A stretch of DNA of 41,812 bases. It comes from Candidatus Dojkabacteria bacterium (GTDB lineage: Bacteria; Patescibacteriota; Dojkabacteria; SC72). Each line of letters opens with the position of its first letter. Position 1 is the first letter of the stretch. Below, one piece after another: positions 13,678-38,037 of this stretch. The stretch covers positions 1-41,812 of the forward strand of contig JAXGRK010000011.1 of NCBI GenBank assembly GCA_040765985.1, read 5' to 3'. The position numbers were made by a program, and so were the translations under genes. The notes below the pieces were generated by a model. It was not told where the DNA came from and did not search any database. It saw nothing but the letters and a program-made list of their open reading frames with translations.

Positions 13678-13757
13678 TTTTCAACAACTATAAATTATTT
13701 CAACATTATAATACTTTCTATAGGGAAACTACAATTAAACTAACCAAAAATGTAAAG

Positions 13758-14166
13758 TGGAGACGGTGGGATTTGAACCCACGTCCAAAAGCTAAGCACA
13801 ATGTCATGTACAAATATATTTAGATTTGTATAGCTAGATTAAACTAAAAAATCTATCAAAAAGTATAATCTACTCAGTAATTGTATTCACTACGGATTCT
13901 CTACTGACAAAGAATACGTACTATACCCTAGTAACGACTGTCTATATCCCCTAACTAGGGATAAGAGAAATAGACATTGAGTAAAACTAATTACTCAAAC
14001 TTATGCAAAATTGTAAGCATATAAAGGTACGCTTAAAGCGTTCCTTAGCTTACTTGCAAAAGCGTTAAGTTTGTTTTCTACACTTATCTGTGTTTTAGTT
14101 TTACGAACTAAAAAACGATTTGTGACAACAGCACTTATATACTTCTGTCGAAAGCCTTACTTCCCC
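13758..14166 (-). ncRNA. ssrA: tmRNA
   Basis: 5' GGGGAAGTAAGGCTTTCGAC; 3' GGACGTGGGTTCAAATCCCACCGTCTCCA; G3-U70 Ala identity pair; helix-2 complementarity (TAAGTGC/GTGCTTA, TGTCA/TGACA); tag ORF at 14081-14001. Confidence 0.93.
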
Positions 14167-17619: not shown

Positions 17620-17784
17620 ATATACATAATACATAAAAGTTAGAATGTTTGGTATAGAGGTATAACCGTAGGCCTATAAAACGATATGTGTAATTATATA
17701 GTAATTTTATATTTAAAAATGTTTTTATAGCAACGATTTCGCGCTTATCCACAGTGGTTCGGGAAATGTGGGGATCTAAGAAAA

Positions 17785-17871
17785 CGGAGAGGGTGGGATT
17801 TGAACCCACGGTACGCAAACGCGTACAACACATTTCGAGTGTGTCCTATTCGACCACTCTAGCACCTCTCC
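17785..17871 (-). tRNA. tRNA-Ser(CGA)
   Basis: GGAGAGG/CCTCTCC acceptor stem, ACACA-CTCGAAA-TGTGT anticodon arm, long variable arm, G discriminator; CCA not encoded. Confidence 0.95.
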
Positions 17872-17885
17872 AAAAGGATTATACT

Positions 17886-25911: not shown

Positions 25912-25949
25912 ATTAAAAGATATCAAAAATACGAAGGGAAGCAAAGGAA

Positions 25950-26036
25950 CGGAGAGAGTGGGATTCGAACCCACGGTACGATTTCTCATACGCACGCTCT
26001 CCAAGCGTGTCCTTTCGACCACTCAGGCATCTCTCC
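25950..26036 (-). tRNA. tRNA-Ser(GGA)
   Basis: GGAGAGA/TCTCTCC acceptor stem, CACGC-TTGGAGA-GCGTG anticodon arm, long variable arm; no CCA. Confidence 0.95.
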
Positions 26037-26037
26037 A

Positions 26038-26114
26038 TGGTGTACCCGGCCGGAATCGAACCGGCAACCTACTGCTTAGAAGGCAATTGCTCTATCCGAT
26101 TAAGCTACGGGTAC
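26038..26114 (-). tRNA. tRNA-Arg(TCT)
   Basis: GTACCCG/CGGGTAC acceptor stem, ATTGC-CTTCTAA-GCAGT anticodon arm, encoded CCA. Confidence 0.95.
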
Positions 26115-32458: not shown

Positions 32459-34717
32459 ATGAAAGATACAATATCCAAAACATTTGAAGAGAAAGAAAAA
32501 GAGATATTTCCTCTTTGGGAGAAATCTGGTCTATTTAATCCAGATAGTATGGAGATGTATTTGAAAGATAAGGGATTTGAAGTAAAAAAACCTTTTACAA
32601 TTACACTACCTCCTCCTAATGCGAATGGGAATTTACACTTAGGACATATGTGTGGGTACTCTTTTCATGATGCAATTGGTAGGTATATGAGAATGACAGG
32701 ACATCCTACCCTACTACTTCCTGGTAAAGATCATGCAGGAATACAAACAGAAACTTCTTTTACAAAAGAGTTACAAAAACAAGGGAAGAACAAATGGGAT
32801 ATGGGAAGAGATGAATTCTATAAACAGTGCTACGACTTCTGTATGAAAAATGCGTCTAATGCAAGAGATCAAGAGAGAAAGATAGGATTAAGTGCAGATT
32901 TTAGTAGAGAGTTTTTTACGTTAGACCCTCGGCTAACAAAAATTGTATATGAGACATTTGAGATGATGTTTAAAGAAGGTATGGTGTATAGAGATAAGAG
33001 GATTGTAAATGTATGTCCTTACTGTAAGACAGCCCTTGCAGATATAGATACCGAGCATGAGCAAAGGAGAGGAATATTCGCATATATTAAATACCCAGTA
33101 GTGGGAAGTAAAGATGAATCCATTATGGTAGCAACTACTAGACCAGAAACTATGCTTGGAGACAGTGCTGTTGCTGTGAATCCCAAAGATGAGAGATACC
33201 AGAAATATATTGGCAAGAAGGTTTTACTCCCTATACAAAACAAAGAGATTCCAGTTATTGCTGACGAAGAAGTAGATATGGAGTTAGGAACAGGTGCTGT
33301 TAAAGTTACTCCTGCCCATTCACCAATAGACTTTGAGATGAGTATGAGACATAACTTGGAGATTGTTGATGTTATAGATGAAAACGGCATTATGACAGGA
33401 GATATACCAGAAAAATACAAGGGGCTAGATACAATCTCTTGTTCTAAACAGTTATGCCAAGATTTAGATGATTTAGGACTACTCGAGGATATTCAGAATA
33501 TTAAACACGAAGTAGCCATTTGTGAAAGATGTAAAACACCTGTTGAACCAGTAATATCCAATCAGTGGTATGTTAATGTCTCTGATTTAGCTAAAAAAGC
33601 ATTAGAAGAACTACATAGTGGAAGGGTAAAAGTAATTCCAGAAGGACAACAGAAGGCATTAGAATTCTTTTTTGAAAATATTAAACCTTGGTGTATCTCT
33701 CGGCAGTTATGGTGGGGGCAAAGAATCCCCGTATGGTATAGCGGGGGGAAAAAACTCTACGATTGGATGTTAGAAAATAAAGGAAAAGAGATTAAGGACT
33801 TTGAAAAAGAATTTAATACTAAAGTAAATGGTGATGGAAGTATCTCTGTTGGAGAAAATCCACCTTCTAACTCTGACGAATGGGAATCAGAAACTGATAT
33901 GTTTGATACATGGTTTAGCTCTGGGCAGTGGCCATACTCTACATTGGGTGGTCCAGATGGAGAGGACTTTAAAAAGTATTACCCTACTCAGATGATGATT
34001 CATGCTAGAGATATTCTGTTTTGGTGGTCAGCAAGAATGTTAATGATGGGTATATACAAAACAAAAGAAGTTCCTTTCAATATAATATTTCTAACAGGTA
34101 TGATACTTGCATCTGATGGTTCTAAAATGTCAAAGAGTAAGGGTAACGGTATTGAACCACAAGAGGTATTTGAAAAGTATGGAGCAGATGCACTGCGTCT
34201 TTGGTATTACTCTGATGCTCTACCTGGTTCTAATGCGCCAATTAGAGAGGAGAAGATTAAAGGTAACAGGAATTTTGTTAACAAGATATGGAACGCTAGT
34301 AGGTTTATCTTGATGAATATCGATGATAGTGAGATTAAGAGGGTTGGAGAATACAAAGTAGATATGAAATCTTTAAGAATTAAAGAAACAGAAGATCATG
34401 TTAAAAAGATATCTAAATATATAGAGAGATATCAATTTAATCTTGGAGCAGAGAGTATTAGAGAGTTTTTCTGGCATGAACTATGTGATGTCTGGATTGA
34501 AGAGGTAAAAAATGAAATTAAAGAAGAAGATTTTGGTTCTGAGGTAAGAATTAGTAAACTTGCAGAACTTCTGTATATTCTTAAAGAGAATCTTAAAATG
34601 ATGCATCCTTTTATACCCTTTGTTACTGAATCTGTATGGCAAGAGCTAGTAAAGCTCAAACTTGCAGAAGGGGTATTGATGAGGTCAACAGATATAGATA
34701 GGGATAGCAATTTCTAA
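32459..34717 (+). CDS. valS: Valine-tRNA ligase lacking the C-terminal coiled coil
   Basis: PPPNANGNLHLGH, DHAGIQT, ATTRPETMLGD, WCISRQLWWG, DTWFSS, KMSKS. Confidence 0.95.
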   Translation: MKDTISKTFEEKEKEIFPLWEKSGLFNPDSMEMYLKDKGFEVKKPFTITLPPPNANGNLHLGHMCGYSFHDAIGRYMRMTGHPTLLLPGKDHAGIQTETSFTKELQKQGKNKWDMGRDEFYKQCYDFCMKNASNARDQERKIGLSADFSREFFTLDPRLTKIVYETFEMMFKEGMVYRDKRIVNVCPYCKTALADIDTEHEQRRGIFAYIKYPVVGSKDESIMVATTRPETMLGDSAVAVNPKDERYQKYIGKKVLLPIQNKEIPVIADEEVDMELGTGAVKVTPAHSPIDFEMSMRHNLEIVDVIDENGIMTGDIPEKYKGLDTISCSKQLCQDLDDLGLLEDIQNIKHEVAICERCKTPVEPVISNQWYVNVSDLAKKALEELHSGRVKVIPEGQQKALEFFFENIKPWCISRQLWWGQRIPVWYSGGKKLYDWMLENKGKEIKDFEKEFNTKVNGDGSISVGENPPSNSDEWESETDMFDTWFSSGQWPYSTLGGPDGEDFKKYYPTQMMIHARDILFWWSARMLMMGIYKTKEVPFNIIFLTGMILASDGSKMSKSKGNGIEPQEVFEKYGADALRLWYYSDALPGSNAPIREEKIKGNRNFVNKIWNASRFILMNIDDSEIKRVGEYKVDMKSLRIKETEDHVKKISKYIERYQFNLGAESIREFFWHELCDVWIEEVKNEIKEEDFGSEVRISKLAELLYILKENLKMMHPFIPFVTESVWQELVKLKLAEGVLMRSTDIDRDSNF

Positions 34718-34738
34718 AAAATTTCCAATAGGTAAAAC

Positions 34739-34786
34739 GATGGAGAGAATCTAAGACATAAGTCAGAGGAACGGATTCTCTCCATC
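34739..34786. terminator. 13-bp perfect hairpin; possible terminator for the minus-strand transcript
   Basis: GATGGAGAGAATC (34739-51) pairs with GATTCTCTCCATC (34774-86); followed by GTTTT on the minus strand. Confidence 0.55.
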
Positions 34787-34798
34787 AAGCGACATAAA

Positions 34799-34954
34799 CT
34801 AATGCCCGTGTCGCTTGGAGCCCGGATCACCTCCTTTCTTTCTTGCTACCCCACAGGTTGGCTTTTGAACCTTCCTCTCCTCACTTTTTGAAACTCTTGA
34901 AGAGAGTTTCCCAACTAAATTATTGGGCTTGCAGACAACAAGAATAGTAGGCAT
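34799..34954 (-). CDS. Unannotated 51-aa basic small ORF
   Basis: AGGAGG 5 nt before ATG; MPTILVVCKPNNLVGKLSSRVSKSEERKVQKPTCGVARKKGGDPGSKRHGH*; shorter than anything in the ORF track. Confidence 0.55.
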   Translation of the reverse strand: MPTILVVCKPNNLVGKLSSRVSKSEERKVQKPTCGVARKKGGDPGSKRHGH

Positions 34955-35006
34955 ATCCACCTCCTATGATGTTTATATCAGAATCTATAATCTTTTGGAA
35001 TATATA

Positions 35007-36746
35007 TTAACTCTCTAGTATTTTTTCAAAAAGAATTTCTGGAGGATTTAATTTGGTATTAGGTTGTACTGTTTCAAATGACCATTTGTTTTCAAAGTTC
35101 TTTACTTCTCCAATCTCTTTTAGTTCAATATTTGGATCATATTCATTTTGAATATTTAGGAGTTTTGTAATTTCTATAGAACTAATTGGTAGGAAGGGTT
35201 TAATTAATATTCTTAACGCATTAACTAGCTGGATTGAGTTGTAGAGAGTATTTTCACACTCTTTAATATCTTCTTTGTATGATATCCATGGGGCCTTATC
35301 ATTAAAATATTTATTACAAAAATCTCCAAATCTAAGTAACTCGTCTGTAGATTTCACAAATTCGCAGTTATTAATGTTTTCTCCTATATTCTTAAGAGTG
35401 TTATCAATAGCGTTTTTAACATTATTATCTAATACTCCGTTAGGAACAGTATTCTCAAACTTACTATTAAGAAAAGAGAGAGTTCTATTTATGAAATTAC
35501 CTATGTTTGCAACTAGTTCATTGTTATTACAATCTATTAAGTCTTTCCACTCAAATTCTCTGTCATGGTTTTCTGGAGCATACCTTACAAAGAAAAATCT
35601 TATTAAATCACTATTATATTTCTCTAAGAGAGAATCTACATCCATACTGTTTCCATCTCCTTTTGACATTTTCTTTCCTTTGTTAAGAAGCATTTTGTTT
35701 GAAGGAATATTGTATGGGAGATTTAAATTCTCTTTTAGAGTTTCTCCTGGTAGTTTGTATTTCTCCCAGAGCGTATTGTCTGAATATTTTTCACTGTATG
35801 CAAGAAGTTCGGCTGGCCAAATTATTGTATGGAAGGGAGTATTACCACCTGCTATGAAGTAGTAATGTTTGCATTTAGGATCTTTCCAAAACTCTTCCCA
35901 TTCACTTGGTTTTCCAATTATATTTGCCCATTCTATAGAGGCAGAAAGATAGCCAACAACAGCTTCTATCCATACATAGATTACTTTGTCTTCCCATCCC
36001 TCTACTGGTACAGGTATTCCAAATTTCATATCTCTTGTTACTTCTCTAGGTCGTAATCCTTCCTTTATCCAGCCCTTGGAGAACTCTCTTACCCATTTTC
36101 TCCATACTCCACTACTATCTTCAACCCACTCCTTTATCTTGGGTTCTAACTTTTTTAAATCAAGGTAAAAATGTTCTGTTTCTTTCAATACGGGCTTCGT
36201 ATCAGAGAGCGTACTAAAAGGGCTTAGTAGATCTTCTGGGGAAAGGAATTCTCCACACTCAGGGCATTCATCCCCTCTTGCATTGACTGCCCCACATTTT
36301 GGGCAAATCCCTCTAACATATCTATCAGGTAAATATTTGTTTACTTTTTCATCGTAATACTGTTTCGATTTCTGAGTGTAAAGATATCCTCTCTCTTTTA
36401 ATACTAAGAAGATATTTTGTACAACCTTTTTGTGATTCTCTGTTGTTGTAGAGGTGTAATTTTCGTATAGGAGGGAGAGTTTGTCGAAGGTACTTAGGAT
36501 ATTTTTGTGTGATTCTTCTACTAGTTGTTCAGGGGGAATTCCTAATTCTTCAGCTTTAAACAGTATTGGTGTCCCATGGCTATCACTTCCAGAGACCATT
36601 AGTACTCTGTTTCCTCTTAACCTATGATATCTAGCGAATACATCACAGGCGATATTTTGTCCAGCAAGATGTCCTAAGTGAATTTTACCACTGGCGTAAG
36701 GCCATGATACTCCAATGAAGATTTTGTTTGTTGTTGTTTTGTCCAT
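35007..36746 (-). CDS. metG: Methionine-tRNA ligase without the C-terminal OB-fold
   Basis: WPYASGKIHLGH, SGSDSHGTP, CPKC/CPECG zinc knuckle, YVWIEA, KMSKG. Confidence 0.95.
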   Translation of the reverse strand: MDKTTTNKIFIGVSWPYASGKIHLGHLAGQNIACDVFARYHRLRGNRVLMVSGSDSHGTPILFKAEELGIPPEQLVEESHKNILSTFDKLSLLYENYTSTTTENHKKVVQNIFLVLKERGYLYTQKSKQYYDEKVNKYLPDRYVRGICPKCGAVNARGDECPECGEFLSPEDLLSPFSTLSDTKPVLKETEHFYLDLKKLEPKIKEWVEDSSGVWRKWVREFSKGWIKEGLRPREVTRDMKFGIPVPVEGWEDKVIYVWIEAVVGYLSASIEWANIIGKPSEWEEFWKDPKCKHYYFIAGGNTPFHTIIWPAELLAYSEKYSDNTLWEKYKLPGETLKENLNLPYNIPSNKMLLNKGKKMSKGDGNSMDVDSLLEKYNSDLIRFFFVRYAPENHDREFEWKDLIDCNNNELVANIGNFINRTLSFLNSKFENTVPNGVLDNNVKNAIDNTLKNIGENINNCEFVKSTDELLRFGDFCNKYFNDKAPWISYKEDIKECENTLYNSIQLVNALRILIKPFLPISSIEITKLLNIQNEYDPNIELKEIGEVKNFENKWSFETVQPNTKLNPPEILFEKILES

Positions 36747-37407: not shown

Positions 37408-38037
37408 ATGGGAACAATGGAAAATACAGAAAGACAACTTGAGTATGTAGGTATAGCAAAAAAAGGTCCTAGTAAGAAAGCAGAAATGATTTTTACTGGT
37501 TTAACCTTTATTGTAGCTGTATTGTTAATTGTCTTTGCAATCTCACCAACCATTACGACTGTTACAGATATAAATAAAGAGATAAAAGAGAAGGAGGGAA
37601 TTACGCAAGCACTTGAGTTAAAGATTAAAGCTTTAAATGAATTGGATAATCAATATAATGAGAACAAAGAGACTTTTAAGGATATTAGTTTAATATTTCC
37701 AACTTCCCAAAATTTTAGTTTGTTTCTAGCAAATATCGATGCCATTGTTACAAGAAACAACTTTATTCTTACTTCAATTGGTTTTTCAGAGTATAAAGAA
37801 ACAACAAAAGATGAGGATTCGTTGAGTATTTCATCTTTAACACCCTTCTCTGTTAGATTATCAGTGAAGGGAAGCAGAATGAATCTGATATCTTTTCTTA
37901 AAGATTTAGAGAGTTTACCAATGTATCCAGTTGTAGAGAGTATTAACTATAGTAGTGATGTTGACGAAGAGGGATTTACGGATTTCTCTGTTAGTTTAAG
38001 GGTATATCATATAGAGAATGTAAACTTTTATGAATAA
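37408..38037 (+). CDS. PilO-like pilus alignment protein
   Basis: TM helix, coiled coil, FPT...VKGS...FLKDLESLP...VESI; SD AAGGAGGT upstream. Confidence 0.75.
   Translation: MGTMENTERQLEYVGIAKKGPSKKAEMIFTGLTFIVAVLLIVFAISPTITTVTDINKEIKEKEGITQALELKIKALNELDNQYNENKETFKDISLIFPTSQNFSLFLANIDAIVTRNNFILTSIGFSEYKETTKDEDSLSISSLTPFSVRLSVKGSRMNLISFLKDLESLPMYPVVESINYSSDVDEEGFTDFSVSLRVYHIENVNFYE

Follow-up and report, generated by a model that had tools for sequence, protein, structure and literature searches.

A Short Putative Transcription Unit of a Dojkabacterial Genome Encodes a Small Basic Peptide and Carries a Second, Shine-Dalgarno-like Box That Is a Candidate Translational Control Element

Why does a genome that shows no Shine-Dalgarno (SD) signal at its start codons carry two strong SD-like sequences within one short intergenic spacer? 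The question is raised by contig JAXGRK010000011.1 of Candidatus Dojkabacteria bacterium (assembly GCA_040765985.1), the 41,812 nucleotides (nt) of which are called the window here. The window is contig C3 of an assembly (genome G000) of 632,856 bases in 12 contigs, 65% complete by marker genes. A 289-nt spacer (34718–35006) separates two convergent genes, and the minus strand between 34727 and 35000 looks like a self-contained unit of ~230 nt. On that strand, the unit consists of a promoter-like box, the sequence AGGAGGTG with an ATG, a 51-codon open reading frame (ORF) named sORF1, a box AGAAAGGAGGTGATCC named SD3, a variable hairpin, and a conserved long hairpin. The SD, the 51-codon ORF, the 16-nt box, and three hairpins are all located on the minus strand where an original prediction, made from the sequence of the window, had placed them. 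We propose that this stretch gives rise to a short mRNA of its own, which encodes a lineage-restricted basic peptide of 51 residues and includes a second SD-like site.

sORF1 occupies 34799–34954 on the minus strand, from the ATG at 34954–34952 to the TAG stop codon at 34801–34799. The list of ORFs gives an alternative of 53 residues that begins at a GTG at 34960. Five nt upstream of the ATG is SD1, AGGAGGTG (34958–34965, minus strand), which includes AGGAGG at 34965–34960 and has a predicted pairing energy with the 16S core of −11.5 kcal/mol. Reading of the frame together with an alignment of homologues reveals a basic peptide with the conserved core ..SK.EE.K.QKPT... The codon analysis was based on an alignment of 22 sORF1 homologues, and the frame is open in 22 loci. 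The entropy summed over codon positions 1, 2, and 3 is 34.8, 35.6, and 48.0, respectively. The core columns K, E, K, Q, K, and P show 0–0.8 bits at codon positions 1–2 and 0.9–1.5 bits at position 3; for the Q, K, and P columns alone, positions 1–2 show 0–0.27 bits. Single-nucleotide codon differences among the homologues comprise 1418 synonymous versus 935 non-synonymous changes. GGAGG, GGAGA, or GGAGT is present a few bases 5′ of the start in 22 of the 22 listed homologues. Because third-position variation dominates in the conserved core and a strong SD precedes every one of these homologues, we judge the frame to be coding. By these comparisons, sORF1 is a genuine gene under peptide-level selection with the core E-K-K-x-Q-K-P-T. 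The original prediction of a hidden small ORF or structured RNA is borne out as far as the small ORF and the structured 3′ region are concerned; being under peptide-level selection, the ORF is not a by-product of an RNA.

Public gene calls already include sORF1 as a hypothetical protein. The peptide profile matched 19 proteins in a set of 5.8 billion and 19 clusters in a set of 1.84 billion; all have 36–65 residues and are unnamed or annotated as "hypothetical". The sole organism names attached to them are those of candidate division WS6, to which we assign the lineage on these grounds. No credible Pfam match was found for any of the 22 sORF1 members and no NCBIfam match for any of four, and the ESM Atlas gave no usable match. 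The AlphaFold2 model of the peptide has a mean predicted local distance difference test (pLDDT) score of 64.5 and contains one short helix (residues 19–29), modeled with low confidence. A kinship with ribosomal protein bS21, suggested by a resemblance, is not supported, as there is no Pfam match even at an E value of 10 and a normal bS21 gene is present. Literature searches returned nothing on sORF1 or on SD use in WS6/Dojkabacteria.

Some homologues show peculiarities of their own. In three of them (G055 locus L067, G020 locus L069, and G061 locus L070), the start of sORF1 is apparently ATT or ATC, located 3 nt past GGAGG. In-frame ATG, GTG, or TTG was not seen nearby in G061 and G020, and G055 has an in-frame TTG at codon 5, ~15 nt past the SD. 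The conserved Lys-Glu-Glu codons are often spelled AAGGAGGA or GAGGAGGA (loci L008, L011, L013, and L017), which creates a further SD-like stretch inside the ORF in several homologues. Sequence reading also reveals an 8-bp hairpin within the ORF of the window (34890–34910, minus strand), in which GAAACTCT pairs with AGAGTTTC (34910–34903 with 34897–34890). The minimum free energy (MFE) fold of the spacer pairs this stretch differently.

The SD3 box, AGAAAGGAGGTGATCC, lies at 34824–34839 on the minus strand, where it codes for K-K-G-G-D-P in the window. Its invariant core, A-GGAGGTGATC, corresponds to 34835–34825, and GGAGGTGATC is found once in the 633-kb assembly. The box is present in 24 of the 26 loci that have sORF1. 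In these 24 loci, which represent 12 genera, A-GGAGGTGATC is near-invariant, with 11 positions at 0–0.79 bits against 1.0–1.9 bits in most flanking positions. The reading frame that meets the box is not constant. Eight loci use it in frame as Gly-Gly-Asp, two have the TGA stop codon of the ORF inside it, and in the remaining 14 it lies 3–64 nt past the stop codon. Since the same core is kept when it is coding, when it holds the stop codon, and when it is in the 3′ untranslated region (UTR), the box is, as judged from the alignments, an RNA-level element conserved whatever the reading frame. As the original prediction had noted, a start codon is lacking past the box at the spacing usual for an SD (ATG, GTG, and TTG considered); the sole GTG is inside it.

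The position of the box relative to translated frames shows a second regularity. In seven loci from four genera, inspection by eye revealed a further SD after sORF1 and a mini-ORF of 10–14 codons, unconserved in sequence, that ends at or inside the box. When the mini-ORFs are counted, a stop codon lies inside the box or no more than about 7 nt away in 16 of the 24 loci (partly by eye), and the TGA of GGAGGTGA serves as the stop in five (by eye). In the other eight, the ORF is read through the box and runs 27–33 nt beyond it. Given that the upstream frame either stops at or in the box or continues through it, ribosomes translating that frame would always reach the box.

The assembly lacks a 16S gene, and the sequence of the 16S tail was taken from relatives of the same family. 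All 12 full-length 16S genes of the family end with CUGAAUUACCUCCUUU, and three of these genomes carry the element. The family 16S end is GAAUUACCUCCUUU, compared with the canonical GGAUCACCUCCUUU. Since other families of the class have the canonical tail, that of the family is apparently derived. The CCUCC core is kept in 12/12 of the family 16S genes. The original prediction of a perfect complement to the organism's own 16S tail did not hold: the box perfectly complements the canonical tail, whereas the family tail gives one wobble and one mismatch. With the family tail, AGAAAGGAGGU is paired perfectly, followed by G.U, A-U, U-A, a C.A mismatch, and C-G; the 5′-most pairs of AGAAAGGAGGU hold only if the mature 16S end extends that far. 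The box is nevertheless the top predicted binder of the family tail in the 633 kb, with −19.3 kcal/mol and rank 1 of 789 sites at or below −11, and in 17/17 homologues the predicted pairing energies range from −14.6 to −19.5 kcal/mol. In this respect, the earlier idea of a ribosome-binding sequence is partly upheld.

The 16S tails differ between families of the class, with GGAUCACC, GAAUCACC, GGAUUACC, and GAAUUACC observed (loci L108–L132). Three genomes of one family (f14) have an altered anti-SD core, AACUCC or UAUCUCC. Just past the modeled 16S end, nearly all of loci L108–L132 have a complement of the anti-SD, (C)UAAGGAG or a sequence close to it.

The genome has no SD signal at its starts. 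An SD 4-mer occurs in 7.2% of 416 start regions versus 10.5% of random background windows, and the mean tail-pairing energy is −0.96 in 415 start regions versus −1.35 in control windows. A pairing energy of −7 kcal/mol is reached in 3.1% of the 415 start regions and 2.7% of the control windows, and an upstream G peak is absent. The sparing use of SD sequences assumed in the original prediction is thereby confirmed. Among 11,831 candidate starts, the best SD is that of rpsU, the gene of bS21, followed by those of an HU gene and a PilO-like gene in the window; several other high-scoring candidates are internal positions of larger genes. The rpsU gene is preceded by AAAGGAGGTAAAAATG (contig C1:121160–121360, minus strand, outside the window). 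The HU gene (C11:8075–8347) has a genuine strong-SD start, as does the gene weakly similar to PilO/type II secretion protein M (window 37408–38037, plus strand), which is preceded by AATAAGGAGGTAGAGTAATATG. Glycine-rich coding repeats (GGAGGTGGTGGT...) at ~30.9–31.5 kb of C1 and ~6.3–6.7 kb of C4 give rise to many of the strongest intragenic sites complementary to the 16S tail.

The 3′ end of the box overlaps a tract, GATCCGGGCTCCA (34816–34828, minus strand), that by duplex prediction is complementary to SD1 and the spacer following it (AGGAG-G-TGGAT). In this duplex, UGAUCC-N-CUCU of the tract pairs with GGAG-G-UGGAU. For the window, the duplex has a predicted energy of −12.1 kcal/mol, which is equaled by 9 of 300 shuffles; the pairing has an ensemble probability of 0.79 in the window transcript and is also present in the MFE fold of the spacer. 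Over 17 loci, the mean duplex energy is −10.35 kcal/mol versus −6.49 (S.D. 2.25) for composition-matched shuffles, and in 10 of the 17 no more than 9 of 300 shuffles are as good. For the mini-ORF architecture, the tract pairs with the SD of the mini-ORF in four of seven loci. In G046 this pairing comprises 10 pairs, and an A-U to G-C exchange is seen between G046 and G047. Overall, the tract is complementary to the first ribosome-binding site or to the mini-ORF SD, better than shuffles, in 14 of 24 loci. Pairing with the SD1 spacer would explain why GAUC is invariant despite its poor fit to the family tail.

Downstream of the box, the spacer is rich in predicted structure, and its fold is more stable than those of 200/200 dinucleotide shuffles (z −4.43). 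The first hairpin, hp1 (34787–34816, minus strand), encloses the stop codon with a 9-bp stem formed by 34817–34809 and 34794–34786. It is predicted in 16 of the 17 loci that share the architecture of the window, with unrelated stem sequences, so that the structure is kept while the sequence is variable; G086 does not have it. The second hairpin, hp2 (34739–34786, minus strand), has a 13-bp lower stem (34786–34774 with 34751–34739), an internal loop, and a small apical stem. Covariation of hp2 was analyzed on 21 rows, one of which is the opposite strand of one locus (a palindromic match). For the 13 pairs, 96.3% of the cells are paired and changes on both sides are seen in 11 pairs, a level reached by 0/500 shuffles, and none of the slid registers approaches the support of the true register. 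Ten G.U cells favor the minus strand, which is that of the ORF. hp2 is located 22 nt from the stop codon of the convergent synthetase gene and is followed by a pyrimidine- and U-rich tail, CGTTTTACCTAT (34727–34738, minus strand), with a longest U run of 4 in the window. It is probably the terminator of the unit, as far as its structure and position indicate. One homologue has the box without the hairpins, and another has the hairpins without the box. The G+C content of 34730–34842 is 0.47, compared with 0.30–0.38 per 1-kb window, in agreement with the original description of a GC-richer segment.

At the other end of the unit, a promoter-like sequence (34972–35000, minus strand) consists of TTCCAA (35000–34995), a 17-nt spacer, and TG-A-TATAAA (34980–34972), and it ends 6 nt before AGGAGG. 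A box of the TTTTTGATATAA type is present 8–10 nt 5′ of SD1 in 15 of 22 aligned homologues. We infer from this placement that it is an extended −10 element, which would set the 5′ end of the transcript just before SD1. No RNA run containing the stretch was found, and two metatranscriptome runs gave no contig, a result that is neutral as to expression.

The unit is restricted to one lineage. By DNA search, 3 of 38 other related genomes have the spacer. A profile built from four peptides detected sORF1 in 23 of 118 genomes of the order, the window included, and all of the matches are in one family (22 of 97 other family members versus 0 of 20 genomes in four sister families). A covariance model of the 3′ part, R1, extended the distribution to 30 of 98 family genomes, the window included, and to 12 of 21 genera, with one locus per genome; the box and hairpins thus recur in relatives. 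In a class-wide sample, R1 gave one weak, atypical match among 105 genomes outside the family. Most of the relatives read share the downstream neighbor of the unit, the 3′ end of the convergent synthetase gene. The locus is single-copy and syntenic and hence, by its genomic context, no mobile-element end, a possibility that the original prediction had left open. In G002, which belongs to the genus of the window (locus L068), the small ORF and the box are deleted, and the stop codon of the methionyl-tRNA synthetase (MetRS) gene directly precedes the 3′ half of hp2. From its position, this remnant is a relic of recent loss, and the distribution indicates that the element is lost repeatedly within the family. 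A related strain, assembled from another run, has one listed difference in the 289-nt spacer versus 20 in 712 nt of the flanking genes (6 left and 14 right, as listed), and the lone spacer difference is a synonymous change of a His codon.

A possibly analogous arrangement was observed in another family of the class (G154, L078:530–700), where a strong terminator hairpin comes after a 17-codon ORF with GAAAGGAGATGATCC, and the gene upstream of this ORF is an unrelated one. This site is a weak match to R1 (E value 1.5e-5).

Several simpler identities for the region were tried and rejected. A leader-peptide attenuator does not suit the locus, as the next gene is the convergent class I synthetase, which ends at 34717, and none follows downstream on the same strand. 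A conserved ORF beginning after the box is contradicted by the nearest relative, in which the frame shuts after three codons. A 16S fragment on the plus strand was dismissed because the match is limited to 16 nt and the preceding bases, by reading, are unlike helix 45. RNase P RNA, considered for UCCGGGCUCCA, gave no match in the region at E values up to 10, and the real RNase P RNA is located at C11:1321–1652 (160 bits).

The explanation that we tentatively favor, with a likelihood somewhat short of even, is that the box is a cis-acting translational control element of sORF1, operated by ribosomes through the 16S tail. All of its mechanistic steps are deduced from sequence and predicted folds. 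The tract 3′ of the box would pair with SD1 and its spacer, or with the SD of the mini-ORF in the genera that have one, and this pairing would close the mRNA as a panhandle and mask initiation. The 16S 3′ tail would find a very strong landing site in the box. The panhandle could then be opened either by a 30S subunit whose tail is free or by a ribosome translating or terminating across the box, and the opening ribosome might be kept nearby for another round of initiation. As a result, translation of the unit would take place mainly while 16S tails are free for pairing, as has been described for rpsU in Flavobacteria. The tie to tail availability is suggested by the fact that almost no other gene uses SD pairing and that rpsU has the strongest start-linked SD.

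A number of observations weigh against this explanation. In 7 of 17 loci of the window's architecture and in 3 of 7 with the mini-ORF, shuffles do as well as the tract duplexes. Cognate duplexes (−10.35 kcal/mol) and non-cognate ones (−9.57 kcal/mol) score nearly alike, so the covariation of the panhandle is weak. Only 5 of 16 transcripts reach an ensemble probability of at least 0.5 for SD1-tract pairing, five have 0.12–0.30, and six are below 0.05; according to these folding models, the panhandle is not general across the homologues. The core of the box is mostly paired rather than exposed in the predicted ensembles, and the G and C of the box that give the wobble and the mismatch with the family tail are invariant positions. 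A simple consensus scan called neither a promoter nor a terminator at the unit. A strong SD on rpsU occurs in no more than 11 of the 30 family genomes and is absent in G081 and G048, both of which carry the element. Finally, the element is missing in 68 of the 98 family genomes searched and is therefore not essential.

An extended form of the cis-control explanation, unlikely in our view, would make the unit a ribosome-state sensor. Its "ligand" would be the 30S subunit with a free 16S 3′ tail, which would bind to the box, open the panhandle, and thereby switch on a lineage-specific small protein that itself acts on the ribosome as feedback. If true, it would represent a second independent invention of control by tail availability, which is otherwise known only for bS21 in Flavobacteria, and it would bring a new protein and a new RNA architecture in an ultra-small bacterium of the candidate phyla.

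A role of the box in mRNA stability is quite unlikely. A 30S subunit parked on the box, and on the 5′-terminal SD1, would shield the mRNA from exonucleases with no control of initiation. The proposal would account for an SD-like box with no start codon after it and for its very high predicted affinity for the 16S tail, and SD1 is indeed only a few nt from the inferred 5′ end. PMC4113751 describes a STAB-SD that works in this way in the cry3A mRNA. A STAB-SD is, however, near the 5′ end, whereas the box is in the 3′ third, ~130 nt from the inferred 5′ end, and the two stable hairpins downstream of it already protect the 3′ end. The conserved tract past the box and the clustering of stop codons at the box would be left unexplained. 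If the box merely stabilizes the mRNA, the unit is a modest curiosity.

We give little credence to a box that is not read by ribosomes at all and is instead one strand of an intramolecular helix, or a site for a protein or another RNA, its SD-like appearance arising by pairing with, or copying from, the SD1 region. The invariant G (position 7) and C (position 10) that misfit the family 16S tail do fit pairing with the SD1 spacer, GGAGGTG is common to SD1 and the box, and, as noted above, the core is mostly paired in the predicted ensembles. Against this, the invariant GGAGG and the A preceding it are superfluous for pairing with the SD1 spacer. A search for another RNA complementary to the box gave no exact second site in G000, G081, and G083, and sites with one mismatch were at the level of a reversed-pattern control. 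A helix closing the unit between the box and the pyrimidine tail, as in a three-way junction, was rejected: shuffles do as well in most of the 17 loci examined, and cognate pairs have −10.05 versus −10.41 kcal/mol for non-cognate pairs.

The original prediction had suggested a trans-acting RNA that traps 30S subunits, serves in hibernation, or acts on the maturation of 16S, and nothing in the analysis shows such a function. Such a decoy for 16S tails or 30S subunits, with the peptide as secondary, is very unlikely. Two or three strong SD boxes on one short RNA in an SD-poor genome, one of them predicted to be the strongest tail-binding site in the genome, would be in keeping with it, and PMC13000453 reports that ablation of the 16S anti-SD in Flavobacterium johnsoniae inhibits rRNA processing. 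The peptide is under selection, however, and titration of ribosomes from a single copy per genome would demand very high expression. The imperfect complementarity to the family tail and the repeated losses within the family also argue against a decoy.

The least probable of the explanations considered is a signal for the end of translation, that is, a catch for re-initiation, a recoding site, or an SD left over from a downstream cistron that has been lost. Translational coupling typically involves SD sites at the ends of ORFs, and the prfB frameshift site includes an SD; the 16 loci whose stop codon is inside the box or at most about 7 nt away are in line with such a role. Neither a conserved ORF nor a start codon nor a slippery sequence is found past the box, however; a frame from the GTG or ATC inside the box closes after three codons in the closest relative, and in eight loci the ORF continues 27–33 nt beyond it.

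On one side of the spacer is the gene of a class I aminoacyl-tRNA synthetase (32459–34717, plus strand), which has a leucyl editing domain, and on the other side is the convergent MetRS gene (35007–36746, minus strand). An Rfam scan of the whole window gave above-threshold matches only to a transfer-messenger RNA (tmRNA) and three tRNAs, all of them elsewhere than the spacer. The tmRNA gene (13755–14166, minus strand) was matched by Rfam with 90.8 bits, and ARAGORN was silent on it. tRNA-Arg(TCT) and tRNA-Ser(GGA) are encoded at 25949–26114 on the minus strand with zero spacer between them, and a second tRNA-Ser(CGA) is at 17784–17872.

Why SD-poor bacteria keep an anti-SD tail has so far been answered by experiment only in Flavobacterium, by rpsU autoregulation and rRNA processing. 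The locus described here belongs to a second, unrelated lineage with the same signature, in which SD signal is lacking and rpsU has the best SD. The unit adds an uncharacterized family of small proteins to the sparse gene set of tiny genomes, and it may be a bacterial case of 5′-3′ communication in an mRNA coupled to ribosome binding. At ~230 nt, it is compact and could be studied in vitro.

Known systems resemble the unit in different respects. The closest Rfam match to the spacer is RF01867 (CC2171 small RNA), which is alphaproteobacterial and of unknown function (bioRxiv 10.1101/2022.01.24.477521). The consensus of this family opens with an unpaired GAAAGGAGGUGAUCC followed by two hairpins, the last of which is terminator-like. 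The match has 27.9 bits (E value 3.8e-4 in a 431-nt search) against a gathering threshold of 75 and rests on a 15-nt box with GAAAGGAGGUGAUCC; its hairpins share no sequence with those of the unit, and it belongs to a distant phylum. No known Rfam family thus reaches its threshold, which agrees with the novelty that the original prediction had assumed. A STAB-SD, described in PMC4113751 as lying close to the 5′ end of the Bacillus thuringiensis cry3A mRNA and blocking RNase J1, likewise resembles an SD and is complementary to the 3′ end of 16S but has no role in directing initiation. In contrast, the SD3 box is in the 3′ third of the RNA, ahead of two hairpins, and not 5′-proximal.

The proposed panhandle has a counterpart in the icaR mRNA of Staphylococcus aureus, where, according to PMC3868564, UCCCCUG in the 3′ UTR pairs with the SD in the 5′ UTR. 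The unit likewise has a pyrimidine tract toward its 3′ end that complements its own SD region and is predicted to mask initiation. Unlike the icaR tract, it abuts a strong SD-like box within reach of a translating ribosome, in an mRNA of ~230 nt without a long 3′ UTR, and the pairing, which is a prediction, reaches significance in 14 of the 24 loci.

In the standby-site model of de Smit and van Duin, a 30S subunit on a nearby accessible site is said to await or promote the opening of a masked SD. The unit would similarly have a holding site for 30S near a masked SD. The proposed holding site differs in being an extended SD ~130 nt downstream, which only the panhandle would bring near.

A further parallel is the rpsU circuit of the Flavobacteria and Bacteroidia. 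PMC7797042, PMC9976891, and PMC13000453 describe a 16S tail that is hidden by bS21, bS18, and bS6 in Bacteroidia and an rpsU SD that is used for autoregulation; loss of the anti-SD is mentioned in the accessible part of PMC9297842 only for some Parcubacteria. In both lineages, the genome lacks SD sites, the CCUCC core is retained, and very few genes have an extended SD; in the genome of the window, that of rpsU is the strongest. The circuit requires an extended SD on the regulated gene, and SD1 is such a sequence before 22/22 of the sORF1 homologues. The two cases differ in phylum, in the 51-residue peptide that takes the place of bS21, and in the second SD-like box at the 3′ side with its anti-SD tract. 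Sequestration of the tail by bS21, bS18, and bS6 is a feature of Bacteroidia, and the likeness of the dojkabacterial unit to this circuit is one of genome sequence.

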